A stretch of DNA of 64,000 nucleotides from Alphaproteobacteria bacterium (lineage in GTDB: Bacteria; Pseudomonadota; Alphaproteobacteria; Micavibrionales; SZUA-601). Made by a program: the position numbers and the translations under genes. Below are positions 8,555 to 64,000 of the stretch, in pieces; the first letter of the stretch is position 1, and every line of letters begins with the position of its first letter. The notes beneath the pieces are model-generated. The model made no database searches and was not told where the DNA came from. It was given only the letters and a program-made list of their open reading frames with translations. The DNA lies in the NCBI GenBank assembly GCA_965216395.1, contig OZ244156.1, positions 328,765 to 392,764 of the forward strand, given 5' to 3'.

Positions 8555-8652
8555 TTTTTTCTATTTTTTATTAAAGACTGTCATTATTTATCAACTATTT
8601 TACTCGATAATCAATGGTTCAAATCTAAAAAATGAAAATTTAAGGAATAAAA

Positions 8653-9396: not shown

Positions 9397-9590
9397 TCAT
9401 TTATTTTCCGGGCATGATCAATCAGCATAATAGGGATATCATCATCTATAGGATAGGCTAGGCCCGCTTCTTTGCAAATGAGTTCACCGGTTTTTTTATT
9501 ATAACTCAGGGATGCTTTTGTCAGCGGACAGACAATTTTTTCTAAAATTTTTGGTGAAACTCCGCCCACTTCATGTTTGTTTTTTGTCAA
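9393..9590 (-). CDS. Trm112/YcaR-family small zinc-ribbon-like protein (UPF0434)
   Basis: 65 aa. LEKIVCPLTKASLSYNKKTGELICKEAGLAYPIDDDIPIMLIDHAR is the family pattern. Confidence 0.8.
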   Translation of the reverse strand: MTKNKHEVGGVSPKILEKIVCPLTKASLSYNKKTGELICKEAGLAYPIDDDIPIMLIDHARKIND

Positions 9591-10138
9591 TGATCATCTC
9601 CTTCGAATCTATCAAGTAGAAATCTTTGATAATGATATCCCAGTGAATCAATAAATTTTAAAAGATCGGTTGACTTAATCACGGTGCTTTTATCGTTCTT
9701 TAAAGGGTGGAAAACAACATAATCGCCTTTGAACAGATGCTCATCTAAAATGACGTTTAAGGCTTTGTTTGAATCATTGAGAAGCGCAAAAGGCGTAACA
9801 GAACCTGGTGTAACATCTAATAATTCTTGCATTTTTTCAGCTTTCCCAAATGAAAACCGTTTGGTGCCAATTTTCTTTCTTAATCCATTGAGATCAACAC
9901 GTGTATCATCCTTAGCGATCACCAACCAATAATTATCTGATTTATTCGTCAGAAAAAGTGATTTTCCTCCCGTACCGGGAATATCTTTTTTTAAATCTTT
10001 GCCTTCATCGACAGTCATGATGGGTGGATGTTGATAGGTTTCATGATGTATATCTTGTTTGTCAAAATATTTAAAAAGAGCTATTTGACTAGGCGATAAA
10101 TCTTCCTTTTGAATATTTCCTATCTTTATAGCGTGCAT
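9587..10138 (-). CDS. YbaK/ProX-type aminoacyl-tRNA editing (prolyl-tRNA synthetase associated) domain protein
   Basis: ...HETYQHPPIMTVDEGKDL...GGKSLFL... pattern. I prefer ATG 10138, which is preceded by AGGAG, over the TTG at 10171 used by the track. Confidence 0.65.
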   Translation of the reverse strand: MHAIKIGNIQKEDLSPSQIALFKYFDKQDIHHETYQHPPIMTVDEGKDLKKDIPGTGGKSLFLTNKSDNYWLVIAKDDTRVDLNGLRKKIGTKRFSFGKAEKMQELLDVTPGSVTPFALLNDSNKALNVILDEHLFKGDYVVFHPLKNDKSTVIKSTDLLKFIDSLGYHYQRFLLDRFEGDDH

Positions 10139-10400: not shown

Positions 10401-11525
10401 ATGTCTGACAAGAAAAAGTCCAAAGAAAAATTTAAAAAAGAAAAGCCGATTAAATTTGATAAAAAATCAAATGATTTTCTTTATAAATATTTGAATACAG
10501 CTGCACCTGTCAGTTACGAAAAAGAAGGACAAAAGGTTTGGCTCGATTATATTAAACCCTATATTGATGATCAAATTATTGATACCTATGGCACGGCTGT
10601 TGGGGTTATCAATCCGGGTAAAAAATATAGTGTTGTGATTGAAGCACATTCAGATGAAATTTCATGGTATGTCAATTATATCACCGAAAATGGATATATC
10701 TATGTCACCCGTAATGGCGGTTCAGATCACCAAATTGCGCCATCCATGCGTGTTAATTTACACGGAGAAAAAGGTTTGGTACCCGGTGTCTTTGGTTGGC
10801 CAGCCATTCACACACGTTTGCCTGGTAAAGAACAGGCACCATCCATGGAAAATATCTGTATTGATGTTGGGGCTTCTAAAAAAGTAGAAGTCGAAGAAAT
10901 GGGGATTCATGTTGGTACGGTGGCTGTATTCCAAGATGGTCTGACAGAACTTAATAATAATTATCTTGTGGGGCGTGCTCTTGATAATCGTCTGGGCGGT
11001 TTTGTTATTGCCCAAGTGGCGCGACAAATCAAAGAGAAAAAAATCAAATTGCCCTATACGCTTTATGTCGTGAATTCTGTACAAGAAGAAATTGGTCTGC
11101 GCGGGGCTGAGATGATCTCACGTCGCTTAAAACCTAATTGTGCGATTGTTATTGATGTCACCCATGATACAAATTCACCGATGTATAATAAGAAAAAACA
11201 AGGGGATATTTCTTGTAATAAAGGGCCAACCATTACGTACGGGCCGGCGGTACAAAATAATCTGCGTGAATTATTGATTTCGACAGCGAAGAAGAAAAAA
11301 ATACCGTTCCAACGTGAGGCACGATCTCGCTCAACAGGCACAGATACGGATGCTTTTGCTTACTCTGCTGAAGGGATTGCCTCTGCCCTCATGTCTGTAC
11401 CTTTGAAATATATGCATACAACGGTTGAAATGGCACATAAAGCGGATGTCAACCATGCGGTTGATCTATATGTTGAAACTTTGAAAAATATCAAAGGAAA
11501 AGAAGATTTTTTATATTTTAAATAG
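10401..11525 (+). CDS. M42-family metallo-aminopeptidase (FrvX/glutamyl aminopeptidase-like), copy 1
   Basis: 374 aa. Has HSDEI..., ALDNRLG, QEEIGLRGA and ...YMHT..E motifs of the M42 family. Confidence 0.8.
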   Translation: MSDKKKSKEKFKKEKPIKFDKKSNDFLYKYLNTAAPVSYEKEGQKVWLDYIKPYIDDQIIDTYGTAVGVINPGKKYSVVIEAHSDEISWYVNYITENGYIYVTRNGGSDHQIAPSMRVNLHGEKGLVPGVFGWPAIHTRLPGKEQAPSMENICIDVGASKKVEVEEMGIHVGTVAVFQDGLTELNNNYLVGRALDNRLGGFVIAQVARQIKEKKIKLPYTLYVVNSVQEEIGLRGAEMISRRLKPNCAIVIDVTHDTNSPMYNKKKQGDISCNKGPTITYGPAVQNNLRELLISTAKKKKIPFQREARSRSTGTDTDAFAYSAEGIASALMSVPLKYMHTTVEMAHKADVNHAVDLYVETLKNIKGKEDFLYFK

Positions 11526-48879: not shown

Positions 48880-50334
48880 ATGACACACTATATTCAAGGT
48901 GAAACAGGTCAATGGGAAATTGTCATTGGGTTAGAAGTACACGCCCAAGTGATTTCTAATTCAAAATTATTTTCTGGCTCATCAACAAAATTCGGTGCCG
49001 CGCCTAATAGTCATGTTTCATTGGTGGATGCGGCCATGCCCGGCATGTTGCCTGTGGTGAATGATTATTGCATAGAACAAGCCGTGCGCACGGGTCTCGG
49101 CTTAAATGCGGCGATTAACAGTTATTCTGTTTTTGAACGTAAAAACTATTTTTATCCCGATTTACCCCAAGGATATCAGATTTCCCAATTTCAACATCCC
49201 ATTGTGGGTGAGGGAGAGATTGAAATTGATTTAGATGATGGGACAACGAAGACGATCCGTATTGAACGTCTTCATCTTGAACAAGATGCGGGTAAATCGC
49301 TTCATGATCAACATCCCAAAAAAACCTATGTTGATCTTAATCGTTCAGGCGTGTGTTTAATGGAAATTGTTTCACGTCCTGATATGAATTCAGCCGAAGA
49401 AGCCGGCGCCTATGTTAAAAAACTCCGCTCTATTTTGCGTTACCTTGAAACCTGTGATGGAAACATGGAAAAGGGAAATATGCGCGCGGATGTCAATTTA
49501 TCGGTTCGTCGTCCCGGTGAAGAATTAGGTACGCGTACAGAAACAAAAAATGTGAATTCAATCCGCAACATTATGGCCGCAATTGATTATGAAACCGATC
49601 GTCAAATTGAAATACTTGAATCCGGTGGCACTATTGTCCAAGAAACCAGACTTTGGGATCCTGATAAAGGGGAGACACGCTCCATGCGCTCTAAAGAAGA
49701 AGCCCATGATTATCGCTATTTTCCATGTCCTGACCTTTTACCCATCGAATTGGAAGAAGGCTATGTTGAACGCATTCAAAAAACACTCCCCGAGCTCCCT
49801 GGGCCGAAGAAAAAGCGTTTTCAAGAGAATTATGGTTTAAGCGCTTATGACGCCAGTGTTTTGATCTCTGATAAATCCTTGGCAGATTACTATGAAGTGG
49901 TTGTTGACGGGAAACGCGATGCGAAGAAGGCGGCCAATTGGGTGATTAATGAATTGTTGGGTGGTTTGAATAAGGAAGGAAAATCTATTGAGGATAGTCC
50001 CGTTAAGGCGGAACAGCTTGGGCAACTTCTTGATCTGATGGCTGATGGTGTTATTTCTGGAAAAATCGCTAAGGATGTTTTTGTTGATATGGTTGAAACC
50101 GGCCAAGACCCAGCAGAGATTGTTGACAAAAAAGGTTTGAAACAGGTTACAGACACCGGTGCGATTGAAACCGTAATTGACGAAGTTTTAAGCAGTAATC
50201 CAAACCAAGTGGAACAATATAAAGCGGGTAAAGAGCAATTGCTTGGATTCTTTGTTGGTCAAGTGATGAAGGCAACACAAGGGAAAGCCAATCCGGGCAT
50301 GGTCAATAAAATTTTGAAAGAAAAATTGAATTAA
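48880..50334 (+). CDS. gatB: Asp/Glu-tRNA(Asn/Gln) amidotransferase subunit B
   Basis: [13 protein letters not shown]...[27 protein letters not shown] and a C-terminal YqeY-like tail. Confidence 0.95.
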
Positions 50335-51394: not shown

Positions 51395-51486
51395 GGAGAG
51401 GTGGCCGAGTGGCTTAAGGCGACGGTTTGCTAAATCGTTGTACGTGGAAACGCGTACCGTGGGTTCGAATCCCATCCTCTCCTCCA
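51395..51486 (+). tRNA. tRNA-Ser (anticodon GCU), long variable arm, CCA encoded
   Basis: Acceptor GGAGAGG/CCTCTCC, anticodon loop TTGCTAA, long extra arm (GTACGTGGAAACGCGTAC), T-loop TTCGAAT. Confidence 0.9.
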
Positions 51487-51607
51487 GTTTTGCACAATTT
51501 CTTGTGCGTAAACCATTGAAAAGATTTCATTTATAATTCATTTGATTTCATCCTATTGCATGTTGCGCTGCAATGTGTACCACAATGAGAACCATGAGGT
51601 GAACCAA

Positions 51608-52915
51608 ATGAAATATTTAACACTACGAAACGGATGGTATATTTATAATCGTCGTGTCCCAAATTGTTATAAAGAATTTGACACACGACAACGAATTAGA
51701 ATTGCGCTGAATACCAAATGTGAAAAAGTTGCCATGAAACAACTTCTCATCGTTAATGATGAAGTTGAAAATTATTGGAAACTGCTTGTTAAAGAACAAG
51801 AGACGCATTCTATTGATAAATATAAAAGATTGGTCACAACTGCCAAACAATTGGGCTTTACTTATGTCCCATCAAGTAAATTAACTGAAATCCCTTGGGA
51901 AGATTTCTTATCACGCTTTTTATCTCTTAAAAATCATATTCATCAAAAGGAATTGGTTGAAGTTGTTGCAGGAACAGACGACCAAAGGCAATTGCCGTTG
52001 TCCGAAGCTTTAGAGCGTTTTTGGCAATATTCCAAACCATTATTAATTACTAAAACACCCAATCAACAGCGAATTTGGAAAAATCCACGTAAAAAAGCAG
52101 TTCATAACTTTATCAAGCAAGTTGGTGACAAAAATATCTTTGAGATTACCAATCTTGATATGATTGCTTTGCGTGATTGGTGGCTAGAGCGTGTACAGAG
52201 TGACAATATTAAAGCTGATACGGTCAATAAAGACTTTACGCATTTAAAGGGCATTCTTGAAACGGTGAATACTCATGAACAGCTTAATATGGATATTGAT
52301 GTGATTTTCAAAAATATCTATCTCAAAGAAGATAGCACATCAACACGATTGCCATTTGAAACTGATTTTATCATCAATGAACTTTTAAACGATGATAATC
52401 TTACAGGAATTGAAGATGAAGCAAAATATATTCTTTATGCAATGGCTGAAACTGGCGCAAGACCGATTGAATTGCTCAATCTCAATGGCGAAGATATCTT
52501 TTTAAATGAAGATATTCCCCATATTTATATTCGTCCAAGAAAAGGATATTCTCTCAAAACTAAGGATAGTCAACGTAAAATTCCGCTTATTGGCTATGCT
52601 TTGAAAGCATTCAGAAAATATCCCAATGGGTTTTCAAGATATAGAGATAAATCAAGTCAGTTTTCACATTATATCAATGCGTTCTTGCGTGAAAAGAAAT
52701 TAAGACCCACCTTAGATCATACGCTTTACTCACTACGCCATAGTTTTCAAGATAGGCTTACAGAACATGAAATTCCCGATCGTATTCAGTGTCAATTGAT
52801 GGGGCATTCATTCAAAGCGAAAGGGCGTGTCACTTATGGTAAGGGTGCTAGTTTAAAGCATTTGAATGAAGTTATGAAGCGGATTAGTTTGTATGATAAA
52901 ATATTTTCACATTAA
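51608..52915 (+). CDS. Tyrosine-type site-specific integrase
   Basis: N-terminus MKYLTLRNGWYIYNRRVP... (an arm-type N-domain common in alphaproteobacterial island integrases). The catalytic region has ETGARPIEL, LYSLRHSF, LMGHS and ...TYG. The start is at internal Met 51608; the track ORF starts at 51542. Confidence 0.85.
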   Translation: MKYLTLRNGWYIYNRRVPNCYKEFDTRQRIRIALNTKCEKVAMKQLLIVNDEVENYWKLLVKEQETHSIDKYKRLVTTAKQLGFTYVPSSKLTEIPWEDFLSRFLSLKNHIHQKELVEVVAGTDDQRQLPLSEALERFWQYSKPLLITKTPNQQRIWKNPRKKAVHNFIKQVGDKNIFEITNLDMIALRDWWLERVQSDNIKADTVNKDFTHLKGILETVNTHEQLNMDIDVIFKNIYLKEDSTSTRLPFETDFIINELLNDDNLTGIEDEAKYILYAMAETGARPIELLNLNGEDIFLNEDIPHIYIRPRKGYSLKTKDSQRKIPLIGYALKAFRKYPNGFSRYRDKSSQFSHYINAFLREKKLRPTLDHTLYSLRHSFQDRLTEHEIPDRIQCQLMGHSFKAKGRVTYGKGASLKHLNEVMKRISLYDKIFSH

Positions 52916-52918
52916 AAT

Positions 52919-53821
52919 TTATCTCAAATGATTATCAAACATAAAGAAATACCATTTATTTTCTAATATTCTAACACACCCGTACTTTGAATTATTAGAA
53001 AGAAATTCAGCAAAGTAGTCTTCCAAACTAATTTGTTTATTTTTAAGATTGATTTCGATATCTTCATCTAACACAAACCACTTTTTTTCTTTTAAATAAT
53101 TAATCATCAAACTCCTATCTTCTCTCATTTCATCGAATTCTTTTGAAAAGTATTCCAATTCATTTGCTAATACTAATCTAACTTTTTTTAATTCATTTAG
53201 ATAATTTGAATGTGGATAAATACTATGAGCTATGAATAAATTTAAGAGATGTTTCTTACTAACTTTATAGTTATTAATAGGGTCTTTTATTAAAACTTTT
53301 TCATCTGTAACCTTATAAATTTTTTGAGAATATTTTGACTTACTGGTTAACTCCTTTTTTAAATAGCCAAAAAATTGATTTTCGTCAGGATAAATATCAA
53401 TTAGCCTATCTATACGCTCAACTGCGGAAAAGTACTCCGCGCTTTTTAAGTCTTTAGATATTTTAGAATATATATGCTTTTTGTGAGCATCTTCAATGTG
53501 AGTATAATGAAAATATCTAGCTCTTAAAATATTCCTGAAATTATTATAATTGACTAAAGTAAATATTAAAACCAAGATTAATAAAATTCGTTTGTATTTG
53601 TAATTAGTTAACTTTTGTTTTAGAACATCTAACTTATAAAATATTAACCCTAACACAAATAGTAAGATCAATTCAGGAATTGCATTTTTTAATACTGTAA
53701 TTATAAAATCATAATTGTTACTCTTAATAGCATCTGGGGCTAAAGCTTGAATTACTAATAATAAACCAGAAATAAATGAGAATAAAATACCTGCACGCTT
53801 AATTACAATATCAAAATTCAT
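52919..53821 (-). CDS. Hypothetical protein, 3 N-terminal TM segments plus a soluble domain of about 200 aa (island cargo)
   Basis: 300 aa. TM candidates are GILFSFISGLLLVIQALA, IPELILLFVLGLIFY and ILLILVLIFTLV. The rest is Y/K/N/F-rich with no motif I recognise. The DNA is very AT-rich. Confidence 0.5.
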   Translation of the reverse strand: MNFDIVIKRAGILFSFISGLLLVIQALAPDAIKSNNYDFIITVLKNAIPELILLFVLGLIFYKLDVLKQKLTNYKYKRILLILVLIFTLVNYNNFRNILRARYFHYTHIEDAHKKHIYSKISKDLKSAEYFSAVERIDRLIDIYPDENQFFGYLKKELTSKSKYSQKIYKVTDEKVLIKDPINNYKVSKKHLLNLFIAHSIYPHSNYLNELKKVRLVLANELEYFSKEFDEMREDRSLMINYLKEKKWFVLDEDIEINLKNKQISLEDYFAEFLSNNSKYGCVRILENKWYFFMFDNHLR

Positions 53822-53825
53822 AATT

Positions 53826-54941
53826 TCAAAATTTTATTTTATCTATTGTTTTTGTAATATCTCTGCTATTATCTTTTATCGAATTGTCTGTATCATTAAA
53901 ATAAGCTTTAGGCGGATTTTTCAAAAAATCAATATAATGTTTGATATCTGTTGATAAATTAGAATTTTTTGTTTTGTTTAAAATCAATGTAAGTTGTTTA
54001 ATCCTAATATTTTTATTCTTTAACTTTCCATTGTGACAGTCCCAAAATAGGCATCTAGCTAGCAAATGCATATTTAACTGTTTAAGAAATTTATTATTTT
54101 TGTTAACGCTATTTACTTTTTTAAATACAGTGAAAGCATCTTCTATTTTATTTTCTTTTAGCAAAGAAACTCCTTTTAAATACAAGGAGATTGGATAAAA
54201 TTTAGATTTTTCTGTTATTTCTATTTTATCAATATTCCTTTTAGATATTATTTTATAACCGTTATTATATTCAAAAATATCTAGTATTTGTTCTCCATCT
54301 TTAAAATGGGTATCAAAATATTCTTGATTTTCTAGAATACATTTTAAAATCATACATTCATCAACAGTGTGTAATCTTCTTAAGGGATCAGTATCATCGA
54401 GTAAAATCCTATCAAAAGCTTTATTAATAAACCATTTTGCTCTTGAAAATTGATGTACTCTTATCAAATTCCAAGCTGGTCTTAAATAAAAATTTCTTAT
54501 ATATCTCTCAAAATCTATGAAATTAGATGTAAATAATTCATAATCAGAAACTATATAATTAAGGATTTTTTCTTCGGCATCATACTCAGCCTTTGACAAT
54601 AAAAAAGACGTCATTTCAAAAATATCACTGAATTTATTCTTTTCATAAAACCTCTCAAGCTCTGGAAACTTTTTTCTAATCTTTAAAACCTCATCGGGTT
54701 CAATAAAATTCTGCTCATATAAGTAGTAATCATTCTCCTCTAAATAGTATGCTATCGAGCTAAAACCTAAATCATTTCTGAAGTATTTTGGTCTTTGTAT
54801 TGAGTAGCTTAAATTTTCAAGGTTTTCACTTCGTAAATAATCTATAAGCTTTTTCAAGACATTATCTGAAATATAGAATACACCATAAAGTGCAATGAAA
54901 ATGGGAATTACTTTTTTAAGTAATAAATTAGAATATTTCAT
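53826..54941 (-). CDS. Hypothetical protein, N-terminal membrane anchor plus a soluble, partly TPR-like domain (island cargo)
   Basis: 371 aa with anchor VIPIFIALYGVFYI. The C-terminal third is helical-repeat-like (ISLYLKGVSLLKENKIEDAFTVFKKV). A 4-nt gap separates it from the downstream gene. Confidence 0.5.
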   Translation of the reverse strand: MKYSNLLLKKVIPIFIALYGVFYISDNVLKKLIDYLRSENLENLSYSIQRPKYFRNDLGFSSIAYYLEENDYYLYEQNFIEPDEVLKIRKKFPELERFYEKNKFSDIFEMTSFLLSKAEYDAEEKILNYIVSDYELFTSNFIDFERYIRNFYLRPAWNLIRVHQFSRAKWFINKAFDRILLDDTDPLRRLHTVDECMILKCILENQEYFDTHFKDGEQILDIFEYNNGYKIISKRNIDKIEITEKSKFYPISLYLKGVSLLKENKIEDAFTVFKKVNSVNKNNKFLKQLNMHLLARCLFWDCHNGKLKNKNIRIKQLTLILNKTKNSNLSTDIKHYIDFLKNPPKAYFNDTDNSIKDNSRDITKTIDKIKF

Positions 54942-54990
54942 TCATTATAAATTTTACTTTTTTTGATTTAAATAGAAACTAAATTATTAA

Positions 54991-55024
54991 TTAAAACAAA
55001 ACAAGCATTACGGTTTACCGTAAT
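54991..55024 (-). terminator. Rho-independent terminator after the TrwC-type relaxase gene
   Basis: Hairpin ATTACGG-TTTA-CCGTAAT (55007-55024). On the minus strand GCTTGTTTTGTTTT follows it. Confidence 0.55.
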
Positions 55025-55058
55025 AAATAAATGTTTTCTATTAAAGTTAAAAAATATA

Positions 55059-57668
55059 TCATCTCCTCATCAACTCCAAAGCACCTATTCTGTCACCTGA
55101 TTGTTTGGTGGCATTGAGGAGTTCTTGCTTATCGTCGGTATAGATTGTCACGGCTTCACGTCCTCGTGAAACACTGACGTAAAATTGTTTTTGGTTTGAA
55201 GCGTTGAATGTTACGGTAGGTTGATTAATGAGAACATGGTCAACGGTTTTACCCTGTGCGCTGTAAGATGTATTAGCATAAGCATAGTCAAAATTCCCAT
55301 GTCTTTTATTTAAGATTATTGGACTGGTTTTATGGCTTGTTTCTTTAGTAGTTTTAATATTTCCATCTTTGGTAAAGCCAACCACTTTAAGAACTGTACC
55401 ATTATCAAGACGCTTGCCTTTCATATCATAACTGTTTTTGGTTATTCTGATTTCATCACCACGACTTAAATCAATTGGGCATGGTCGATACAAATCAAAA
55501 TAACGTGTCTTATTAAGTGGTAATTCGTGATTATTTCCTTGAATATCTGTGACAATTACACGTCCTTGATGATTATCCACAATTTGTAAAACACTGCCTC
55601 TTTTGATATTTTTTAGGTTTTGATGTGCTTGAATAATCAACCCCTTTTGATAATGACGCACATCTTGCTTATCCCCATCTGTTAAATACAGGCTTTGATA
55701 AGTAGTAAAATTCTTTTGCCTTTTACCGATGTAGTTCAGAGTTTTAAGCTTTTCACGAATACCTAAATTAAGTTCTCTGACATGATTGCGTGTTGGCGAT
55801 ATCACGAGAACAGATTTTTTCTGACCTTTCAGATCAATATAATCACTTATCAAGCTTTCAGATATTTTATCAATAGGAAGCTCAATGATTGAATTGTTTT
55901 CATCCAGTTGCGTAAAACCTTGCTCAATATTGCCCTGACTAATGGCATAAACTGCTTGTTTATAGCTTTCTTGTTTCTGTCTGAATATTTCATTGAGTGA
56001 AACATATGGAATTTGTCCAATCGTTTGTAAAATCCGCATAGCATCGCCTCTTTGTACGGCGCTATGTTGTCTTGGATCACCAACAAAAATAACACGCGCT
56101 TGTTTTTCTTCCGCCAGTTCCAAAATCAGATTTGCATCTTGCGCGCCAAGCATACCCGCCTCATCAATCAAAATAACTTGTCCTTGGATGTCGTGTTGGA
56201 TTGTCTCATTATTAAGCAGTTGAAACACCGTATCAGCATGTTCAAATCCCTCATGGCGTAAAACATCACGTGACGCTGTCGCAGTCGGCGCAAAAATGGA
56301 AACTTTAAAACCTTGATATTCAATAAAAGGGATGAGGGTTTTAAACAGCGTGGTTTTACCTGTTCCTGCGCCACCGCGCACCATTGTCAGAAAATCTTTT
56401 GAACGCATGATATGTTTAAGAGCTTTTTGTTGTTCATTTCCAAGATGTAATTCTAGGGTTTCATCAAAACGCTCATCAAAGGCAGGGTATTTACCAATCC
56501 CGCGACGGGCAATATCAATCATCTGTTTTTCTTCATCATGGACTTTATGGCTTGTGTAGAGATATTGTGTCCCAGATTTAACCTTAAAGAGTTTAGTATT
56601 ATTGGCAAACTTTTCGTCAATTGCCGCTAATGTGACATCCTTATTATCTATCGCATAATAATAGGCATGGGTTAAAATCTGTGTTTTACGCCTTACAGAA
56701 TTACGGGTAAAAGATTTTTCAATAGCAAAATTAACCGTTTTATGTGCGTTCAAATCAAGATTTTGTGTGGGTTGTTCTTCGGGTTCATCATCAATGCCAT
56801 ATTCGGTTAGTTGGTCTTGCCATTGTTCTTTTAATTGTGGAAGCGTTAGCGTATTATTCTTGCGCTGTCTAGTTTGTGCGCCAAGTTGGTCTAGAGCTTT
56901 AGCATTGGTAATATTCTTAGACTTGGCGACTTCGCCAATCAAATTGGTGCGTTTTGAAAAAAGCGCGATGGCATTTTTGGGAACAACCGATAGTTCAAAA
57001 CCATTACTGGTTTTTCGAATACCATAGCCCAATTCACTGTAACGGTCGGCTAAACGCTTTAAAAATCGAGCTTGGTAATAAGGCATATCTTTTTTAATCT
57101 GATAAAATTGTCCTGCTTTAAAGCGTTGTTCAACCTCATCATAGGTAGTATTAAAGACAAAAATATGCTGATGAACGTGGCAATCGGGCGCAAAATTTTC
57201 AACAGGGCGGGCGGTCAAATGAGTAAAGTCACACCAAATCATTTCGCCTGTGACACGATCATCATTTTTACCATGTTTGCGGATGCGTGTTTGGGTTGCA
57301 GTTTCGATTTCCAACATGGTTTCATAAACACAAGTTTGAAAGGCTTGTAAGATAGTTTTATCAAGTGTTATCCCATAAAGAATAGACACAGATTTAGGAC
57401 AATGGAAACTTATATCATAACCAACGCGTCGATAATCAAATGTTCTTGGTGTTAAGGCTTGTCCAGTTTGGGGATTGATATTATCGCACAATAAATCAAA
57501 AGTTGATTTTATGATGGGCTTATCCTTTAAATCAAGTCGTTCGGCAATTTTACCGTAAAAATGACCGCTTGATTCTTGCCCCTCAATATAATAATCCGCC
57601 TTTGATAAAGAGGAAGCAAAATAAGTTTTTGTTTGGACAATATTACTTGATTGGTGCATACGTATCAT
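55059..57668 (-). CDS. TrwC/TraA-type (MOBF-like) conjugative relaxase fused to a RecD-like helicase
   Basis: N-terminal TrwC relaxase pattern (...ADYYIEGQESSGHFYGK...; THLTARPVENFAPDCHVHQHIFVFN histidine triad). Helicase Walker A GGAGTGKTT and Walker B ILIDEAGML. ATG 57668 is preceded by AAGGAG with an 8-nt spacer. The track's GTG at 57677 overlaps that SD. Confidence 0.85.
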   Translation of the reverse strand: MIRMHQSSNIVQTKTYFASSLSKADYYIEGQESSGHFYGKIAERLDLKDKPIIKSTFDLLCDNINPQTGQALTPRTFDYRRVGYDISFHCPKSVSILYGITLDKTILQAFQTCVYETMLEIETATQTRIRKHGKNDDRVTGEMIWCDFTHLTARPVENFAPDCHVHQHIFVFNTTYDEVEQRFKAGQFYQIKKDMPYYQARFLKRLADRYSELGYGIRKTSNGFELSVVPKNAIALFSKRTNLIGEVAKSKNITNAKALDQLGAQTRQRKNNTLTLPQLKEQWQDQLTEYGIDDEPEEQPTQNLDLNAHKTVNFAIEKSFTRNSVRRKTQILTHAYYYAIDNKDVTLAAIDEKFANNTKLFKVKSGTQYLYTSHKVHDEEKQMIDIARRGIGKYPAFDERFDETLELHLGNEQQKALKHIMRSKDFLTMVRGGAGTGKTTLFKTLIPFIEYQGFKVSIFAPTATASRDVLRHEGFEHADTVFQLLNNETIQHDIQGQVILIDEAGMLGAQDANLILELAEEKQARVIFVGDPRQHSAVQRGDAMRILQTIGQIPYVSLNEIFRQKQESYKQAVYAISQGNIEQGFTQLDENNSIIELPIDKISESLISDYIDLKGQKKSVLVISPTRNHVRELNLGIREKLKTLNYIGKRQKNFTTYQSLYLTDGDKQDVRHYQKGLIIQAHQNLKNIKRGSVLQIVDNHQGRVIVTDIQGNNHELPLNKTRYFDLYRPCPIDLSRGDEIRITKNSYDMKGKRLDNGTVLKVVGFTKDGNIKTTKETSHKTSPIILNKRHGNFDYAYANTSYSAQGKTVDHVLINQPTVTFNASNQKQFYVSVSRGREAVTIYTDDKQELLNATKQSGDRIGALELMRR

Positions 57669-57839
57669 AGAAATCACTCCTTAAATTAATCATGAAGTGA
57701 TTATTTACCCTATCTATAATGAGGGTGGTACGCACAGTCTGTACTCATAAATAAGGTTAATGTAATTTTTAACGCAGTGCTTTTATTTCTTTATGAATGA
57801 GTATGCAAAGTAAAATTTTAGGGGGATTTAAATTTCTTG

Positions 57840-57868
57840 CACTGCAAAATTTAAGAATTTTTGCAGTG
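57840..57868. repeat. Perfect 10-bp inverted repeat upstream of the TrwC-type relaxase gene (candidate oriT/operator element)
   Basis: CACTGCAAAA (57840-57849), a 9-nt spacer, then TTTTGCAGTG (57859-57868). It lies in the 284-bp non-coding gap 57669-57952. Confidence 0.6.
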
Positions 57869-57952
57869 TTATGATATGTCAGACATCTCCCCGCGTTTTT
57901 TAGCGGGCGTGATTTTCAAAATAAACCTAACGTTTTTTCGAATAAAGAAACT

Positions 57953-59653
57953 CTATTTTATGTTCTTCTCAATTTCTAGAACATCGAATATTTTTTTAAG
58001 AGGGTATTTATCTTTATTATTAGGATAAATATTGCTAACATAACGTTCAAATGGTAAATTCATTTTAGCCATATCATTCTCATCGTATTTTTTATTGAAT
58101 TTTCTTTCAAAACGCTTCAAATATTGAAAATAACCATCCGCTAGTTCTCTTATATCAAAATGTGGCAGTTGATGAATTTTTTCTATTAAAAAAGATATGT
58201 TCATGAAAAGTAAATTCTCTATCTTTTTAAAAGTATTAGTCAAATCTTTCTCTAAGTTTAATCTTGCTTTGAATTCACCATTCAGATAACGATTAACTCC
58301 TGGCATACTAAAGAAATTATCTGTATAGATTATTATTGGATATATTATAAGATTTCTTTGCTTCAACTTTAATTCTTTATAGCTTTTGTCCTCAAATGGC
58401 TTATCCATAAGTTTTTTTAATTGCTTAACAATCTGTCCTGTTCCTTTTGATTTTGTATTATATTTGGTATCGATGGCACTTTTAATTTTTTCATAATCTA
58501 AAGAATTAATTGCCTTAGCAGGAAAATAGGCATCTTTGATTTCGAAAAGAAAAATAAATTTCCCAAATCTGTAATATGCATCGGGGAAACCATCATTTTT
58601 GTAATCATCAAATTTTAAGATTGAATGTTTCTTATTCAAATAATGAGAAAGGACTTTTTTAAAAATATGATCTTCAGTTACTTCTTGACCTAAAAAATTT
58701 TTAAAATCCGGAAAATTTTTAAATTTTGGATTATCAGCAATTCCGGAGCTTGCATAAAAATCAAAAACTAATCCCTCATAAGTTTTATTAATAATAAAAT
58801 TCCAATTAAAGACAAAAAACTTATTCGGTTGTATTTCAATTAAAGGTGATTGTTTTAGACCATTGAAATTCTTTTTATCTTTTACATACTCTTTTTGATA
58901 TTCATCAAGTTTTAAAGTGAAATTTTCGAGTATTCTCTCTGTAATATCTCCTTTTTTGATTACAAAGGGTGTTGAGTCTTTATCTGAAATATCTTTTGAC
59001 CAACTCGCTTGCAATGTATTTGTTATTGTCATTATATAATGCCAATAACTTTCTTTTTGATTATATCTCGTAAATGCATCAACATAGCCGTCAAATTCTG
59101 GATGTTTTTTTAGAACATTAAAAAACACAAGCGAGCGAATAAGATTATGCATTGGTCTAATATGATGATTAACCTCATATTGATCTATAAAAGTAGGCCA
59201 TGTTTTTACTTGAAAAAATTCGCCATTATCGTCATTTGAATTAAATGAATGCTCATATCTTTTATTTATCGTACTGGTAATTACTAAATATGCTTTAAAA
59301 AAATTCAATTCTTGTTCTGGTGTAGTGTCTACAATTGAAAAATCACGATAATTTATTAATTCATAATGAATGAATTCTAAGCTATATCTAATACTAAAAA
59401 TATCAACTCTTTGTTCAGTTTCATATTTTGAAAGTCGATCTAAAATTCGATTTCTTAAAACACTATCAAATCGTCTAGAAATTAAATCAAAAAGTTTTCT
59501 TTGAGTTGCTCTTTTACCCAAAAACAACTCAGCATTAATAAGGCAAAGCATACTAAGTGTCACATTCGATGGAATATCTTTTAGTAAATCTGTTAATTTT
59601 GGTATCTCATCATCGAAAATATCTGAGTAGGTAGGTGTAATAATAAATTCCAA
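57953..59653 (-). CDS. Hypothetical protein with C-terminal PD-(D/E)xK nuclease-like motif (island cargo)
   Basis: 566 aa. Residues 355-373 read GFPD-AYYRFGKFIFLF-EIK (D358/E371/K373, nt 58535-58582), followed by GQIVKQL. The N-terminal 340 aa or so are unassigned. Confidence 0.55.
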   Translation of the reverse strand: MEFIITPTYSDIFDDEIPKLTDLLKDIPSNVTLSMLCLINAELFLGKRATQRKLFDLISRRFDSVLRNRILDRLSKYETEQRVDIFSIRYSLEFIHYELINYRDFSIVDTTPEQELNFFKAYLVITSTINKRYEHSFNSNDDNGEFFQVKTWPTFIDQYEVNHHIRPMHNLIRSLVFFNVLKKHPEFDGYVDAFTRYNQKESYWHYIMTITNTLQASWSKDISDKDSTPFVIKKGDITERILENFTLKLDEYQKEYVKDKKNFNGLKQSPLIEIQPNKFFVFNWNFIINKTYEGLVFDFYASSGIADNPKFKNFPDFKNFLGQEVTEDHIFKKVLSHYLNKKHSILKFDDYKNDGFPDAYYRFGKFIFLFEIKDAYFPAKAINSLDYEKIKSAIDTKYNTKSKGTGQIVKQLKKLMDKPFEDKSYKELKLKQRNLIIYPIIIYTDNFFSMPGVNRYLNGEFKARLNLEKDLTNTFKKIENLLFMNISFLIEKIHQLPHFDIRELADGYFQYLKRFERKFNKKYDENDMAKMNLPFERYVSNIYPNNKDKYPLKKIFDVLEIEKNIK

Positions 59654-59664
59654 ATTATATATTT

Positions 59665-60429
59665 TTAACGTTTAAAACCACGATCACGTTTTTGTTCAAT
59701 CTCATTTTGGTTCTCTTTGAACTGGCTTTCTCTTAGCTTTTCGTAGGCTTGGTCAAGCTTATTATTTGTCATTTCAAGCTTATGTTCTTCAAAATCCTTC
59801 AATTTTTCATTCGGTATTTCTTGTGATTGATCAAACTTATTATTTTGCTCTTGAAGCTTTTCTTGATTTTGTAATTGATCAATTGGACTGTTTGTTTTTT
59901 TTATCCTTTCTTCGCTACTATTTCTTTCTTTATGATATTCTAGTGAGTCATTTGCTACTTCTTGTGATTGATCGAGAGTTTTATTTTGTTTTATTCGTTT
60001 ATCATATCTGACAATGTCATTTTTGTTTTCTCTAAATGGCTGTAGTTTTCGATTGTTTATAACTTCGTCACGCCCTTTTTCAATAAAGGTTGGTAATTCA
60101 TTCGTAGAAAATTCTTTTAACTTATCTACTAATTCATCGCCACCCATTTCCTTACAGTGGTCATGAGCAACTTTTTCTATCTTTTTAGCATTCTGATCTA
60201 ACTGTTCTTTGAAGCGTTTCTCTCTACTCTTTTTATCCTTTGATTTGTCAAGTTTATAGGTTCTTGGCGGTAATTTTTTAGCCCAACTAGGCTTTGGCGT
60301 ATAGTCTAGCTTATTATAAGTCGTGTCCTTATGATAATCCGCTTCAATTTGTTTTCTCTCATCTAAAAGCTCTTTAATTTCAATAAGATTTCTTAGAACA
60401 TCCCTTAATTCATTATAGTTTGTTGACAC
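59665..60429 (-). CDS. K/E/Q-rich protein with internal repeats, likely coiled-coil (island cargo)
   Basis: 254 aa with a GTG start and no obvious SD. Repeated peptide K(L/F)DQSQE(V/I), encoded by the 15-nt direct repeat TTCTTGTGATTGATC at 59818 and 59959. An 11-nt gap separates it from the downstream 566-aa gene. Confidence 0.45.
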   Translation of the reverse strand: MSTNYNELRDVLRNLIEIKELLDERKQIEADYHKDTTYNKLDYTPKPSWAKKLPPRTYKLDKSKDKKSREKRFKEQLDQNAKKIEKVAHDHCKEMGGDELVDKLKEFSTNELPTFIEKGRDEVINNRKLQPFRENKNDIVRYDKRIKQNKTLDQSQEVANDSLEYHKERNSSEERIKKTNSPIDQLQNQEKLQEQNNKFDQSQEIPNEKLKDFEEHKLEMTNNKLDQAYEKLRESQFKENQNEIEQKRDRGFKR

Positions 60430-60475
60430 TTGATAAGTTTTATGTTAAGTTACAATAATTAATTGAGGTGCAAAA

Positions 60476-60847
60476 ATGAGCGAGTTTGTGGAAACACCAG
60501 AAAGATTAAAAGCCTACAATACAGAAAATATCGAGTTTAAAGACAAGGCTCGAAGACTTATCATTAAAGAATTAGGATTTGAACCGAACCTTAGAGCTTC
60601 TTTAGGATTTGAATTACTGATAAGACATATGTTAAAAAATGTTTACATAGGTAAGCTTTCGAAAAAAAAGCTTAGACAGCATTTATTAGTTTTGTGTAAT
60701 GCCACACGAGATAGTATTAGACGAGAATGCCCCGAACAAGTTTATCTCTTAGAGAAAAAACGTCCTAGCGTTTCTTACCTCTATCTTGGGCTTGGTTTTC
60801 TCGGGCTTTGTCTTCTTGGTGTTCTAGCATTTTTTTGGTTTGGCTAA
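60476..60847 (+). CDS. Small basic protein, possible DNA-binding regulator, hydrophobic C-terminus (island cargo)
   Basis: Strong SD (GAGGTG) 7 nt before the ATG. 123 aa. The last 28 codons or so are antisense to the K/E-rich 3' end of the relaxase gene, which mechanically yields a Leu/Phe-rich tail. Confidence 0.45.
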   Translation: MSEFVETPERLKAYNTENIEFKDKARRLIIKELGFEPNLRASLGFELLIRHMLKNVYIGKLSKKKLRQHLLVLCNATRDSIRRECPEQVYLLEKKRPSVSYLYLGLGFLGLCLLGVLAFFWFG

Positions 60848-61838
60848 AGGCATCTTCGAGTGTTCGTGAACGCGTTATACCATCGCCATTATCGCTAAAT
60901 TCGCTTTTTTTCTTTTCCCATCGTTCCTCTTTAAAATCTTTAATCAGTTTTTCAAAGCGTGCGCTGGCTTGTCCGATTTCATCTTTAGTGACCATGTTAA
61001 AAGCATTTTCAACTATCACTTTTTTCTTATATTGGATATCTTGTTTTTTCTCAGCTTTCTTTTCTTTACTCTGTGATCGCTCTTTTTTTAAATCCTCAAC
61101 TTTGGGGAGTTGCTTTATGATCGGTTGCAGTTTTTGCTCAACGTGTTTTTTCTTCTCACCCGTAAAGCGCATCAGGGAATGAACTTGGTTTTTATCACTA
61201 ACCAGAACGACACCACGCCTGCCAATCGCTAAATTGAAGCCTGCCTTTTTTAAGGCGGTTTGTAATTCTTGCGGGTTTGAGTGTTGTTGATAGAGTTTCT
61301 TTATGCGCGCTTTCAATTGTTTGGGCGTATAGCCATCACGAATAGTTTGTTGGCGTTCATTCATTGTGTCCCAATTGGAACCAAACTCAGCTTTGAGCGT
61401 TTTATGTTTAAAACGTTGTTCTAAATCACGCCCAAGTTTTTTATGAATGTAATAGTCATTTTTTGTGTCAATGACTTTACCTTGTTCTACATCCGTGCGT
61501 TGCCAGACAACATGAATATGGGGACGTCCGCCTTTTTCATGATAGACAACCGCGCGCGGTTGATTGGTTAACCCTAAGCGGTTTTCCATTTCATTGACAC
61601 TATATTGCCATTGTTGGGGTGTCATGGTTTCACCGATGGCAGGATTAATCTGTGCGTGATAAAGCCCTGTCTTGGCTTTGGTCATCTTTGCGGTCAGTTC
61701 CATGTCTTTCAAGGCTTGGGTGAGGTCTTGTGTCGCTGTACCCGTAATCTCAACCACGACAATACGCTCATTATCATCTTTAAGGAGATGTTGAGCTAAA
61801 CTCGCGCCATTGGAACGTTTCCCCCCTTTACAGATCAT
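60765..61838 (-). CDS. MobA/VirD2-family relaxase (mobilization nuclease domain)
   Basis: N-terminus MICKGGKRSNGASLAQHLLKDDNERIVVVEITG and YHEKGGRPHIHVVWQRTD (HxE...HxH metal triad). These match the alphaproteobacterial MILKGSQRGG...AAHLL...FHEKEGRRHAHCVW relaxase family as I recall it. Confidence 0.8.
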   Translation of the reverse strand: MICKGGKRSNGASLAQHLLKDDNERIVVVEITGTATQDLTQALKDMELTAKMTKAKTGLYHAQINPAIGETMTPQQWQYSVNEMENRLGLTNQPRAVVYHEKGGRPHIHVVWQRTDVEQGKVIDTKNDYYIHKKLGRDLEQRFKHKTLKAEFGSNWDTMNERQQTIRDGYTPKQLKARIKKLYQQHSNPQELQTALKKAGFNLAIGRRGVVLVSDKNQVHSLMRFTGEKKKHVEQKLQPIIKQLPKVEDLKKERSQSKEKKAEKKQDIQYKKKVIVENAFNMVTKDEIGQASARFEKLIKDFKEERWEKKKSEFSDNGDGITRSRTLEDAFSQTKKMLEHQEDKARENQAQDRGKKR

Positions 61839-62175
61839 ATCCTAGAGCTTGACGGAGATCTGTACGCATGGCTTCAATTTGTTTCAATAAAGATTGCCCT
61901 AATGCAACATCCGTTGGATTGCCACTATTGTAATGTTTGGCGATTTGATTGATATTCCCGCCAATCTTACCCCAAGAAGCCAAAAGCTTAATCAACAGGG
62001 CTGTTTCAGCGCCTGATTTCAGCGGTTTGGATTTCAGCGCGGTTTTGCGAAAATAATCCGCGCCACTTAACCCCGCTTGTTCACAGCGCGCCAGAAAGTT
62101 TTGTTTTTCCTGTGCTGTCAGGCGAAATTGCACCAATTCATTGCGCTGTCGCTTTTCACTTCTTTTTTTCTTCAT
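61828..62175 (-). CDS. mobC: MobC-family relaxosome accessory protein
   Basis: RNELVQFRLTAQEKQNFLARCEQAGLSGADYFRKTAL plus ...GGNINQIAKHYN is the MobC pattern. Overlaps the relaxase start by 11 nt. Confidence 0.8.
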   Translation of the reverse strand: MKKKRSEKRQRNELVQFRLTAQEKQNFLARCEQAGLSGADYFRKTALKSKPLKSGAETALLIKLLASWGKIGGNINQIAKHYNSGNPTDVALGQSLLKQIEAMRTDLRQALGYDL

Positions 62176-62204
62176 AACTCAAAAAAAAATAACTCAACCC
62201 TTAT

Positions 62205-62290
62205 CGGGGAGGATTAAACGGACGGGGAGTTTCCCCTCCTTTACAAGGGTGGCGGTATGACCGCCCCATACCTTGCATCTGCCACTCAAT
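62205..62290. other. Candidate oriT of the MobC/MobA module
   Basis: GC-rich structured patch directly upstream of mobC. Hairpins GGGG-AGTTT-CCCC (62224-62236) and GGCGG-TATGA-CCGCC (62251-62265), followed by CCTTGCATCTGCCA (62271-62284). Confidence 0.45.
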
Positions 62291-62438
62291 AGAAGTTTTT
62301 TCTTAAATAAAGATAAGGATTTATTTGTAAAAACGATGCGCTTATCACTTTAAAAATATTCACCAAACACACGAAATAGGATGTATTCTGGTAAGATTTT
62401 GGGGGCAATGCCCCGCATTTTAGGGCTTTAAGATTTTC

Positions 62439-62466
62439 TTGACTCTTGTTCGATAATATGTATAAT
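62439..62466 (+). promoter_or_regulatory. Near-consensus sigma70-type promoter for the 337-aa gene
   Basis: TTGACT (62439-62444), a 16-nt spacer, then TATAAT (62461-62466). It lies 30 nt upstream of ATG 62497. Confidence 0.5.
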
Positions 62467-62496
62467 AATTAGGAACTGTAATAACAGAGAATTGTC

Positions 62497-63510
62497 ATGG
62501 ACGCGTTTTCATTTCGGATAAGTTTAATCGAGTTAACAAAGCCTGTATTAAATAATGCGCATGACGCTGTTCAAGGATTAAACGCCATCAAACAAGCAAT
62601 TGACTTTCTTCTACTTAGTAACGATGAAATAGATCATCAAGAAAGACAAGAACTCATCAATAAGAGTTTTGATATTATCGGTGGTCAATATGATTTACCC
62701 GAAACAAAACAGGAATTTTTGCAAACAAACCCTGATAAAGTGATTTATGGTTTGACACAGCACTTAAAAAGTCAAAATCCATTATCAACGCTTTATAATT
62801 ATGACATTCCGTCCAATCTTCCCAAGAATGCACAATCTGATTATGTGGAACGTTTGAGAACTTGTGCAAAAGACTCAGCCTTTTATGATTGTTATTTACG
62901 AGATACCAGTCGGCTTGACAATTTAGAGGGGATTAGTTCATCACCCGCAGAACCGAATTCCGATGAATTGGGGTATATCCATCCAAGAGAACGTGAATAT
63001 AAAGCCTATAAAGCAAGACAAAGAGAAATTGAATTAGAAGAAGCTAGAGAAGCATATGAAGCACTCAACCGTTCATTTCTTCGTGATGAGAATGGTAAAG
63101 TCAATCTTAATGAATACAAAGGTGGCGAAGATTTTTTGGAAAAGATACATTTTCTCAAACACAGCTTTTGGTCGCTAAGAGATGCGGGTAAGATTCCTAG
63201 TAATAGTGATTTCGCAACCTTTAGAACGCTTGATTATGATTTCATCATGGGAAAGCTTATAGAAAATCAAATTGTGGTAGATTATCCTGAATATCGATCC
63301 CTTGAAGATGAAAATGTCAGACAAGCCCATTATGAGCAGAAAGCACAAGAATTTGGTGTCAGTGTTGAACTCCTAACAATGGATATTCGTGATGTACCTA
63401 ATCAAGATGATAGCCTCAATGCTTTTAGGGAAAATGCCCAAGAAGTTTCATTAGGTCAACGGCTTGTCAATGGCGTCAAAAAAGCGGTTGATTTTGTTAA
63501 ATCCCTTTAA
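62497..63510 (+). CDS. Hypothetical protein (island cargo)
   Basis: 337-aa acidic, helical-looking ORF with no recognisable motif. A promoter-like element lies upstream. Confidence 0.5.
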   Translation: MDAFSFRISLIELTKPVLNNAHDAVQGLNAIKQAIDFLLLSNDEIDHQERQELINKSFDIIGGQYDLPETKQEFLQTNPDKVIYGLTQHLKSQNPLSTLYNYDIPSNLPKNAQSDYVERLRTCAKDSAFYDCYLRDTSRLDNLEGISSSPAEPNSDELGYIHPREREYKAYKARQREIELEEAREAYEALNRSFLRDENGKVNLNEYKGGEDFLEKIHFLKHSFWSLRDAGKIPSNSDFATFRTLDYDFIMGKLIENQIVVDYPEYRSLEDENVRQAHYEQKAQEFGVSVELLTMDIRDVPNQDDSLNAFRENAQEVSLGQRLVNGVKKAVDFVKSL

Positions 63511-63563
63511 TTGAATTGATTAATTTATCAAAATATTATTTTTCTTACTTAACATATAAATTT

Positions 63564-63607
63564 TTATTGTATTTTCATGGTTGAATAACCGTAAAAAAAT
63601 ACAATAA
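63564..63607. repeat. Long imperfect inverted repeat / stem-loop abutting the next start codon
   Basis: TTATTGTATTTT (63564-63575) pairs with AAAATACAATAA (63596-63607). There is an inner GGTT-GAAT-AACC stem. The 3' arm ends 1 nt before ATG 63608. Confidence 0.55.
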
Positions 63608-64000
63608 ATGAGATTTATTAATCTTGGTAAAAAACGTCGTTCAAAAAATAGACTTAGAAATACCAATCCTATGATTGTTAATATCTTATGGTATGCATTG
63701 GTAATTTATTCAATTATATCTGCATTTGACAAGAAATCCTACCTTGGTCCTTGGCTTTTGGTTTTAATAATCTTCTTGGTTGCTATTTCTTTTATCCACA
63801 GTTACAAATTTATTAAGTTTCATAAATATGCTGATAAATTTGAAAATAATGATCCTTGGTTACCGAAAAACTTTGAGATTAAACTTCCACCAACTTTACA
63901 AAAAATTGTAGATCGTAATGCTGATGATGTTCGTAAAGAAATGGGCGTTGAAAAATATATTGAAGCCCTTGAAGCCGAATTAGAATTTCTTCATGAACAT
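63608..64000 (+). CDS. Hypothetical membrane protein, N-terminal part (continues beyond the window)
   Basis: Not in the ORF track because it is truncated. My translation is MRFINLGKKRRSKNRLRNTNPMIVNILWYALVIYSIISAFDKKSYLGPWLLVLIIFLVAISFIHSYKF... It has two TM segments and stays open to the window edge (131 codons). Confidence 0.45.
   Translation, partial: MRFINLGKKRRSKNRLRNTNPMIVNILWYALVIYSIISAFDKKSYLGPWLLVLIIFLVAISFIHSYKFIKFHKYADKFENNDPWLPKNFEIKLPPTLQKIVDRNADDVRKEMGVEKYIEALEAELEFLHEH

Follow-up and report, generated by a model that had tools for sequence, protein, structure and literature searches.

A solitary predicted PD-(D/E)xK nuclease gene as a base-precise cargo cassette between the relaxase modules of a mobilizable island, with a plausible restriction-like or defence role

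The 64,000 nucleotides (nt) analysed here (contig OZ244156.1 of assembly GCA_965216395.1, Alphaproteobacteria bacterium, positions 328,765 to 392,764; hereafter the window) include an element that is integrated at a tRNA-Ser gene, is mobilizable and has two relaxases. Between the two relaxase modules lies a gene for a protein of 566 amino acids (aa). We conclude that this protein is a predicted PD-(D/E)xK nuclease with conserved active-site residues, and that its gene is a cargo cassette of a single gene, inserted with base precision directly after the stop codon of a backbone gene for a 254-aa protein. A restriction-like or defence role is its most likely function. Taking anatomy and role jointly, we regard this reading as moderately probable, and the anatomy alone is much firmer.

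Conservation of the catalytic residues, together with the predicted topology, carries most of the nuclease assignment. Residues 355-373 of the 566-aa protein read GFPDAYYRFGKFIFLFEIK, with D358 to K373 encoded by nt 58535-58582. Direct reading confirmed the GFPD…EIK motif and the positions of D358, E371 and K373 that an initial annotation of this DNA had taken as a PD-(D/E)xK signature. That signature is borne out by an alignment of 48 homologues reaching down to about 20% identity, in which D358, E371 and K373 are present in all sequences; P270, K403, Q407, P439 and G452 are likewise invariant, and E327 and G404 are each 98% conserved. It is also borne out by the topology of an AlphaFold2 model (pLDDT 90.2, pTM 0.89), which has helices at residues 314-339 and 405-417 and strands at residues 344-348, 359-363, 366-373 and 436-443. 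In the model, E327 lies in the first of these helices and Q407 in the second, D358 starts strand 359-363, and E371 and K373 end strand 366-373. The predicted order of elements, α-βββ-α-β, is that of the canonical four-motif restriction-endonuclease core. As modelled, the protein consists of an all-helical region (residues 1 to about 312), the nuclease core (about 313-500) and a helical tail. The TTG start codon of the gene is credible because homologues align from residue 1.

The 566-aa protein belongs to a large family whose members are similar along their whole length. A word-indexed search returned 93 homologues, mostly of 540-600 aa with some shorter fragments, and the named members are from Bacteroidota. 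A hidden Markov model search of 1.84 billion representatives returned 2,214 clusters (at 50% identity) with E <= 1e-3, 978 of them with E <= 1e-30; among the best 150 clusters, nearly all are 540-600 aa long and match end to end, and about a dozen are shorter fragments. In the 48-sequence alignment, residues 1-312 have 2% gaps and a median identity of 32%, and residues 313-500 have a median identity of 46%. The N-terminal region is thus an integral, co-conserved part of the nuclease family and not a swappable one.

Neither the sequence nor the predicted structure places the family within a described one. An exact look-up of the 566-aa protein in the contig index returned no record. The 566-aa protein has no match in Pfam, NCBIfam, PADLOC or the PHROGs, and a Pfam scan of the 48 family members gave scattered noise plus one sub-threshold match to DUF4143 (one member, E 1.5e-4). 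One member carries the UniRef label "NERD domain-containing protein", an automatic label on a single sequence, and none of the 48 matches Pfam NERD at E <= 1. Both NERD and DUF4143 are PD-(D/E)xK nuclease domains. Foldseek found no match to the full model at E <= 0.001 in the Protein Data Bank (PDB) or in BFVD, a set of viral structures. The weak matches that recur in the PDB all have the restriction fold: the R.BspD6I small subunit (E 0.028, probability 0.94), Nt.BspD6I, Hjc, RecU, McrC (E about 2-3) and LmuA. In BFVD, weak matches to the nuclease core only were to a phage restriction endonuclease (E 0.017, probability 0.95), resolvases and VRR-NUC proteins. R.BspD6I/Nt.BspD6I, Hjc/RecU, McrC and LmuA share the D…ExK active-site strands and are the best, though weak, structural neighbors of the core. 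They differ from the 566-aa protein in that all matches have E >= 0.017, with a global TM-score of about 0.2 (Nt.BspD6I) or lower, and in having nothing equivalent to its N-terminal domain and C-terminal helical tail.

The suggestion that the first 340 or so residues resemble nothing familiar held in all searches. The N-terminal 310 to 345 residues have no Pfam family and no solved fold relative. Residues 1-345 modelled alone (pLDDT 87.9) had no match in the PDB (best E 0.19, probability 0.09), and the family profile, searched against all PDB sequences at E <= 10, found one unrelated 55-residue protein (E = 1).

Comparison with sister elements defines the cassette to the base. One of these is L031, from a metagenome-assembled genome (MAG) labelled Kordia sp. 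TARA_039_SRF. The backbone proteins of the window are 94-97% identical to those of L031 (NikA 96%, relaxase 94%, a 337-aa protein 97%, TrwC 95%), and the backbone DNA is 92-93% identical. Between the repeat copies described below, the window carries 1,738 base pairs (bp) more than L031, and this unit is the nuclease cassette. The 254-aa homologue of L031 ends with 116 nt that are 92% identical to the window and directly abut a non-coding segment that is 95% identical to window positions 57935-57777, which in the window starts 17 nt past the nuclease stop codon. In the window, the two sides of the cassette carry copies of an 8-bp direct repeat, AAACGTTA, located at 59673→59666 and 57935→57928. 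The empty site in L031 has a single copy of the repeat (10661-10669), which forms the stop of the 254-aa homologue, and its sequence is GGTTTTAAACGTTAGGTTTATTTTG. With slashes at the junctions, L031 reads …GGTTTTAAACGTTAG/GTTTATTTTGAAAATC… and the window reads …GGTTTTAAACGTTAA/AAATATATAATTTGG…(566-aa gene)…TTATTCGAAAA/AACGTTAGGTTTATTTTGAAAATC…. In a third element, L033 (uncultured Kordia), a different insert of 572 bp with ORFs of 99 and 65 aa lies between AAGCGTTAA and AAACGTTAG, with repeat copies at about 10668-10676 and 11249-11257. The form of the repeat flanking each insert, in the window and in L033, is AA(A/G)CGTTA(A/G).

These comparisons, together with the tRNA and integrase that bound the element, agree with the earlier proposal that the gene is island cargo. 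The insert of L033 is unrelated to the nuclease cassette and sits at exactly this site, which is therefore not reserved for the nuclease gene. Similarly, the flanks of the 28 distant nuclease homologues described below have no common motif, and the repeat therefore belongs to the slot in the element and not to the nuclease gene. The nuclease gene has a GC content of 26.5% (19% at third codon positions), and TrwC, the relaxase and NikA have 37.5%, 41.5% and 44%, respectively.

Judged by the junction sequences, cassettes without a promoter of their own seem to enter at a site-specific slot. The cassette is most likely expressed by read-through from the promoter of the 254-aa gene. We identified no slot-specific recombinase, and no integrase adjoins the slot. 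A 21-mer at the conserved slot boundary, GTTAGGTTTATTTTGAAAATC, gave two chance matches in metagenome contigs, neither with element genes. The junction heptamer GTTAGGT fits the integron core-site consensus GTTRRRY; neither an attC nor an IntI is present. We considered an integron gene cassette and rejected it, as the 17 nt from the stop codon to the right repeat leave no room for an attC. By eye, the last 50 nt or so of the nuclease gene contain no inverse core site complementary to GTTAGGT. The conserved non-coding segment that bounds the slot (57777-57935) contains three stem-loops, CCCGC-N8-GCGGG, GAGATGTC-T-GACATATC and CACTGCAAAA…TTTTGCAGTG, with a DNA folding z of -2.96. This segment could serve as a terminator, operator or oriT upstream of TrwC.

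The slot resembles the variable cargo hotspots of integrative conjugative and mobilizable elements, which have the same conserved backbone of integrase, relaxase and coupling protein and alternate unrelated cargo, including nucleases. Here the cargo is the 566-aa protein in the window and an Mrr_cat nuclease in L033, an element that also carries the Lamassu-related LmuB_C. Unlike in the known hotspots, the insertion point in the window is defined to the base, after a backbone stop codon and at an 8-bp repeat, and the cassette is apparently promoter-less. One account of integrated mobile elements (PMC10201445) describes them as commonly carrying defence systems.

Features of the nuclease cassette and its host element in the window (positions are those of the window; P357-D358 and the like are residues of the 566-aa protein)
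Feature	Position	Strand	Remarks
566-aa nuclease gene	57953-59653	minus	TTG start; from the ORF list
Catalytic motifs I-III	58535-58675	minus	E327 58673-58675; P357-D358 (D358 58580-58582); E371-x-K373 58535-58543
Motif IV, K403-G404-T-G-Q407	58433-58447	minus	start of helix 405-417
Direct repeat, left copy AAACGTTAA	59665-59673	minus	includes the 254-aa gene's stop codon; from junction alignments
Direct repeat, right copy AAACGTTAG	57927-57935	minus	17 nt after the stop codon of the 566-aa gene
Conserved non-coding segment bounding the slot	57777-57935	minus	95% identical to L031; first 59 nt 97% identical to L033; flanks differ
254-aa K/E/Q-rich protein gene with internal repeat	59665-60429	minus	GTG start; backbone gene
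123-aa small protein gene, hydrophobic C-terminal segment	60476-60847	plus	divergent; backbone gene
MobA/VirD2-type relaxase	60765-61838	minus	PF03432
NikA-like accessory protein	61828-62175	minus	PF21983
TrwC-type relaxase-helicase, 872 aa	55059-57677	minus	PF08751, AAA_30 among others
Second variable cargo slot, 371-aa and 300-aa genes	52919-54941	minus	between TrwC and integrase; GC 24.5%
DUF6538/tyrosine integrase	51542-52915	plus	boundary feature 51395-52915
tRNA-Ser, element boundary	51395-51486		

The nuclease gene is solitary. A genome scan that required two peptide patterns, with a 23-sequence alignment, confirmed 28 distant loci among the 185,579 species of the collection. No neighboring gene is conserved at these 28 loci, save for integrases, which occur in eight of the 30 loci clustered. 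Ten upstream neighbors with tight linkage to the homologue were annotated; they are mutually unrelated and include an alpha/beta hydrolase, PDDEXK_9, an epimerase, NUDIX, SIR2_2 and an AAA protein. Several loci have defence genes nearby. For example, at L028 the nuclease homologue lies directly downstream of a 1,051-aa SIR2-APAZ-pAgo fusion (6775-9930) with a full-length PADLOC pAgo match (E = 0), and at L012 it adjoins a PD-T4-1-like gene. HamB, RmrA, type II/IIG restriction-modification genes, integrases and transposases are found within three genes of the homologue at other loci. Among the sister elements, L033 has a receiver-Mrr_cat nuclease in its inter-relaxase region and also has CTD7, MC3 and LmuB_C. 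Separately, the related loci L028 and L030 share proteins of 1,549-1,580 aa and 510-629 aa (in L030, 3608-8350 and 8370-9902), and the L030 copy of the shorter one has weak Pfam matches to AAA_24/AAA_25.

We propose that the cassette is transcribed by read-through from the promoter of the 254-aa gene, and that its product would cleave DNA in a Mg2+-dependent reaction in which E327, D358, E371 and K373 act and K403 and Q407 assist. The N-terminal domain would gate or target the nuclease, by target discrimination or by autoinhibition; such gating would make a nuclease without a methylase tolerable to the host. The gene would serve as a restriction-like or defence factor against incoming phage or rival mobile DNA, to the benefit of the element that carries it.

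Several points weigh against this proposal. Eight of the ten large immediate neighbors have no PADLOC match, and most neighbors of the distant homologues are housekeeping genes or genes with no assigned function. Enrichment in defence islands, judged from raw proximity, is no more than suggestive. The family is without a model in PADLOC-DB 2.0.0, which fits novelty and equally fits a non-defence role. Because no fold match reached E <= 0.001, the nuclease-fold assignment leans mainly on motif conservation and predicted topology. Lastly, we infer the role of the N-terminal domain, and we infer read-through from the mere 11 nt that lie upstream of the 566-aa start.

The proposal can be extended. 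The family might be a new immune nuclease, encoded by a single gene and directed against phages or plasmids, with a novel N-terminal sensor or autoinhibitor, and the site after the 254-aa gene might be a platform for promoter-less cassettes that are captured at a AAACGTTA core and expressed from a backbone promoter, in an integron-like manner without an integron integrase. We entertain this fuller version tentatively, as possible but doubtful.

An alternative to the proposed defence cassette is that the 566-aa protein is an orphan type II or IIS-like restriction endonuclease, with its methyltransferase encoded elsewhere, or a modification-dependent (type IV-like) enzyme, for which no methyltransferase would be required. 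The best fold matches, to the type IIS-related R.BspD6I/Nt.BspD6I and to a phage "restriction endonuclease", point in this direction, as do the size and two-part layout of the protein, which resemble those of recognition-plus-cleavage enzymes, and the Mrr-type nuclease in the same inter-relaxase region of L033. However, the global TM-score to Nt.BspD6I is only about 0.2, and a PDB search with the N-terminal domain turned up no recognition domain. A methyltransferase is conserved beside none of the 28 homologues: none of the ten tightly linked upstream neighbors is one, single methyltransferase matches are scattered among the 138 neighbors, and none lies beside the gene in the window. Mrr_cat, McrB/C and other type IV domains gave no match to the protein in Pfam, NCBIfam or PADLOC, and no Pfam match in the 48 family members. 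We therefore consider an orphan or modification-dependent restriction enzyme unlikely.

A nuclease that serves itself or its element is less likely again. It could be a homing-type endonuclease that inserts its own gene at AAACGTTA, or an enzyme of conjugation, exclusion or maintenance. The precise insertion of one gene, with an 8-bp direct repeat, into elements of otherwise 92-95% identity speaks for such a nuclease, as does the location between two relaxase modules. Yet the unrelated cassette at the same site in L033 and the lack of a common flank motif at the 28 other loci argue against it. The initial annotation had pointed out that homologues always tied to relaxases would imply a conjugation accessory role. 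They are not so tied: the 28 loci lack homologues of the window relaxases, with the exception of one marginal match (E 0.006) at L026, and there is no relaxase family among the 25 most frequent Pfam families of the neighbors.

We judge it improbable, and somewhat more so, that the protein is a housekeeping-type nuclease of DNA repair or recombination that is carried on the element by chance. The fold matches do include Holliday-junction resolvases, and many neighbors of the distant homologues are ordinary metabolic genes. Against this, the distribution is patchy (28 confirmed loci in 185,579 species, with two peptide patterns required), the context varies completely and includes integrases, transposases and defence genes, and near-identical elements differ in whether they carry the gene.

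The initial annotation had compared the protein to Shedu, and a very distant variant of Shedu (SduA/DUF4263), whose N-terminal sensor domain keeps the nuclease inactive until DNA invades, is a further alternative. The general logic is the same. Both are single polypeptides with a non-catalytic N-terminal domain followed by a C-terminal PD-(D/E)xK core with motifs I-IV (E; D; ExK; Q). In the preprint by Gu et al. (bioRxiv 10.1101/2023.08.10.552793), the motifs of Bacillus cereus SduA are E204, D249, E264/K266 and Q295, and the motif IV Q of four-motif PD-(D/E)xK nucleases is described for Shedu and EndoMS; K403…Q407 of the 566-aa protein corresponds to this Q. The D-to-E spacing, which had been said to equal that of SduA, does not: it is 13 in the 566-aa protein (D358 to E371) and 15 in SduA (D249 to E264), on the numbering given in that preprint, and this spacing is not diagnostic anyway. 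The DUF4263 and PADLOC Shedu models matched neither the 566-aa protein nor any of the 48 family members at E <= 1. In the PDB, the sole sequence that the family profile matched at E <= 10 was the 55-residue protein and not a Shedu chain, and among the 50 Foldseek PDB matches listed there was neither a Shedu nor an EndoMS structure. In addition, the same preprint reports strikingly diverse N-terminal domains among nearly 8,000 Shedu homologues, whereas the family described here, of about 570 aa, has one fixed and apparently co-evolving N-terminal domain. We conclude that the resemblance to Shedu is one of shared logic, not of family membership, and that a Shedu variant is very improbable. By analogy, SduA of B. 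cereus provides our working model for how a methylase-less nuclease such as the 566-aa protein might be tolerated, as its nuclease is inhibited by its own N-terminal domain according to the same source.

The genes next to the cassette are, on comparison of the elements, backbone genes and not parts of a nuclease system. The three ORFs of 566, 254 and 123 aa, the 11-nt gap between the stop of the 254-aa gene and the start of the 566-aa gene, the 46-nt divergent spacer (60430-60475) and the GAGGTG that precedes the ATG at 60476 of the 123-aa ORF were all found on re-reading as first described, and Pfam matches place the 254-aa and 566-aa genes between relaxase modules, with the NikA-like and PF03432 pair on one side and TrwC on the other. 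The GTG start of the 254-aa ORF is credible because homologues align from residue 1. Shine-Dalgarno-like motifs precede 14 of the 56 genes in the window, compared to a background of 4.5%, so the one ahead of the 123-aa ORF is modest evidence. Neither the 254-aa nor the 123-aa protein has a significant match in Pfam, NCBIfam, PADLOC or the PHROGs. The 254-aa protein is K/E/Q-rich with an internal repeat, as first described: the 15-mer TTCTTGTGATTGATC occurs in exactly two copies, at 59818 and 59959, both inside its gene (0.05 expected by chance; two matches were reached in none of 100 shuffles). Its description as a dedicated partner of the nuclease did not hold, as its gene belongs to the backbone of the element family.

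Homologues of the 254-aa protein form only four other clusters. They were examined in the contexts of L031/L032 (the MAG labelled Kordia sp. TARA_039_SRF), L033 and L034/L035 (a Cellulophaga MAG). In all of these the local order is NikA-relaxase, a small ORF on the opposite strand and the 254-aa homologue, and none of them has a nuclease homologue. Beyond the 254-aa homologue, L031-L033 continue with a variable region and TrwC, and in L034/L035 TrwC is at the other end of the locus. The genes after the 254-aa homologue encode proteins of 169 aa, 183 aa (DUF6879) and 68 aa in L031/L032; the 99-aa and 65-aa ORFs, then the receiver-Mrr_cat nuclease and a MORN protein, in L033; and proteins of 196 and 267 aa in L034/L035. 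The 123-aa protein has homologues in L033 (74% identity over all 123 residues), L031 (52%), L034 (a tandem pair, 43-45%) and L001 (38%). The closest homologue of the nuclease itself (60% identity) is in L001/L002, where the order is NikA, relaxase, small ORF, a 212-aa gene, nuclease and TrwC. The 254-aa gene is probably co-transcribed with whatever cassette follows it, and the 11-nt gap, together with the stop/start overlap of the homologues in L001, makes co-transcription of the 254-aa and 566-aa genes likely.

The earlier proposal of a three-gene system, in which a 566-aa nuclease effector acts with a 254-aa K/E/Q-rich accessory protein and a 123-aa divergent regulator, is the most improbable of the alternatives: the same-strand genes 11 nt apart and the recurrence of the trio in L001 and L002 speak for it, but the trio occurs together only there and in the window, the 254-aa and 123-aa homologues occupy the same position without a nuclease in L031/L032, L033 and L034/L035, neither protein has a homologue encoded in any of the 28 distant nuclease loci, and comparison of the empty and filled sites makes the nuclease gene alone the inserted unit. 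Tight spacing and an apparent operon had made two backbone genes look like components of a system, and comparison with sister elements showed otherwise, which is a caution for similar cases.

The divergent gene pair also differs from the rest of the element in its identity to L031. Positions 60056-60789, compared to 9629-10374 of L031, cover the whole 123-aa gene and the larger part of the 254-aa gene and are 52% identical in protein and 71% in DNA, against 92-95% elsewhere in the two elements; identity is back at 92% over the final 116 nt of the 254-aa gene. This stretch could be either a recombination patch or a sign of fast diversification of the divergent pair. The 123-aa ORF and the relaxase gene are convergent and overlap in antisense by 83 nt (60765-60847) at the 3' end of the relaxase gene. 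An overlap of this type is also found in L033, and L031 has about 420 extra bp, including a 90-aa ORF, between the 123-aa homologue and the relaxase gene. L034 has a tandem duplication of the 123-aa homologue that amounts to 223 aa.

The element occupies the 51487-64000 portion of the window, with chromosomal GatA and GatB to its left, and similarity to L031 stops at 51468, inside the 3' end of the tRNA-Ser. Its sister elements additionally encode a T4 coupling protein. The second variable slot, between TrwC and the integrase, has no DNA counterpart in L031, L033 or L001, and its 371-aa and 300-aa proteins have no match in Pfam, the PHROGs, PADLOC or PDB sequences. Downstream of TrwC, L033 has ORFs of 194 and 187 aa followed by the CTD7, MC3 and LmuB_C genes, and the 371-aa and 300-aa pair may therefore be another conflict module.

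The best named relatives of GatB (48880-50334) are from Alphaproteobacteria and Rhodospirillales MAGs, at 70-74% identity, so that by this gene the host chromosome looks alphaproteobacterial. The copy of the element that is 92% identical is in a MAG labelled Kordia (Flavobacteriia), the labels being those given by the sources. In the Cellulophaga MAG, the relative adjoins CarboxypepD_reg/OMP_b-brl_3 receptor genes, which we take to be of Bacteroidota type. An alphaproteobacterial GatB beside an element with Flavobacteriia-labelled relatives and a nuclease whose named relatives are from Bacteroidota is compatible with horizontal spread, and we read no more into it. The element may cross phyla; otherwise some of the MAGs must be mislabelled or misbinned.

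A solitary PD-(D/E)xK nuclease carried as mobile cargo is of a kind already known. What the analysis leaves is a widespread nuclease family that is absent from the libraries searched, together with a clean site of cassette exchange and a plausible defence role. The base-precise site illustrates the exchange of nuclease cargo among mobilizable islands whose backbones are near-identical, and the window and L031 form a clean natural pair of filled and empty sites. If the 566-aa protein is a defence nuclease, it would add a single-gene system that is widespread and escapes current defence-finding models, and its N-terminal domain of unfamiliar fold could reveal a new mode of sensing foreign DNA.

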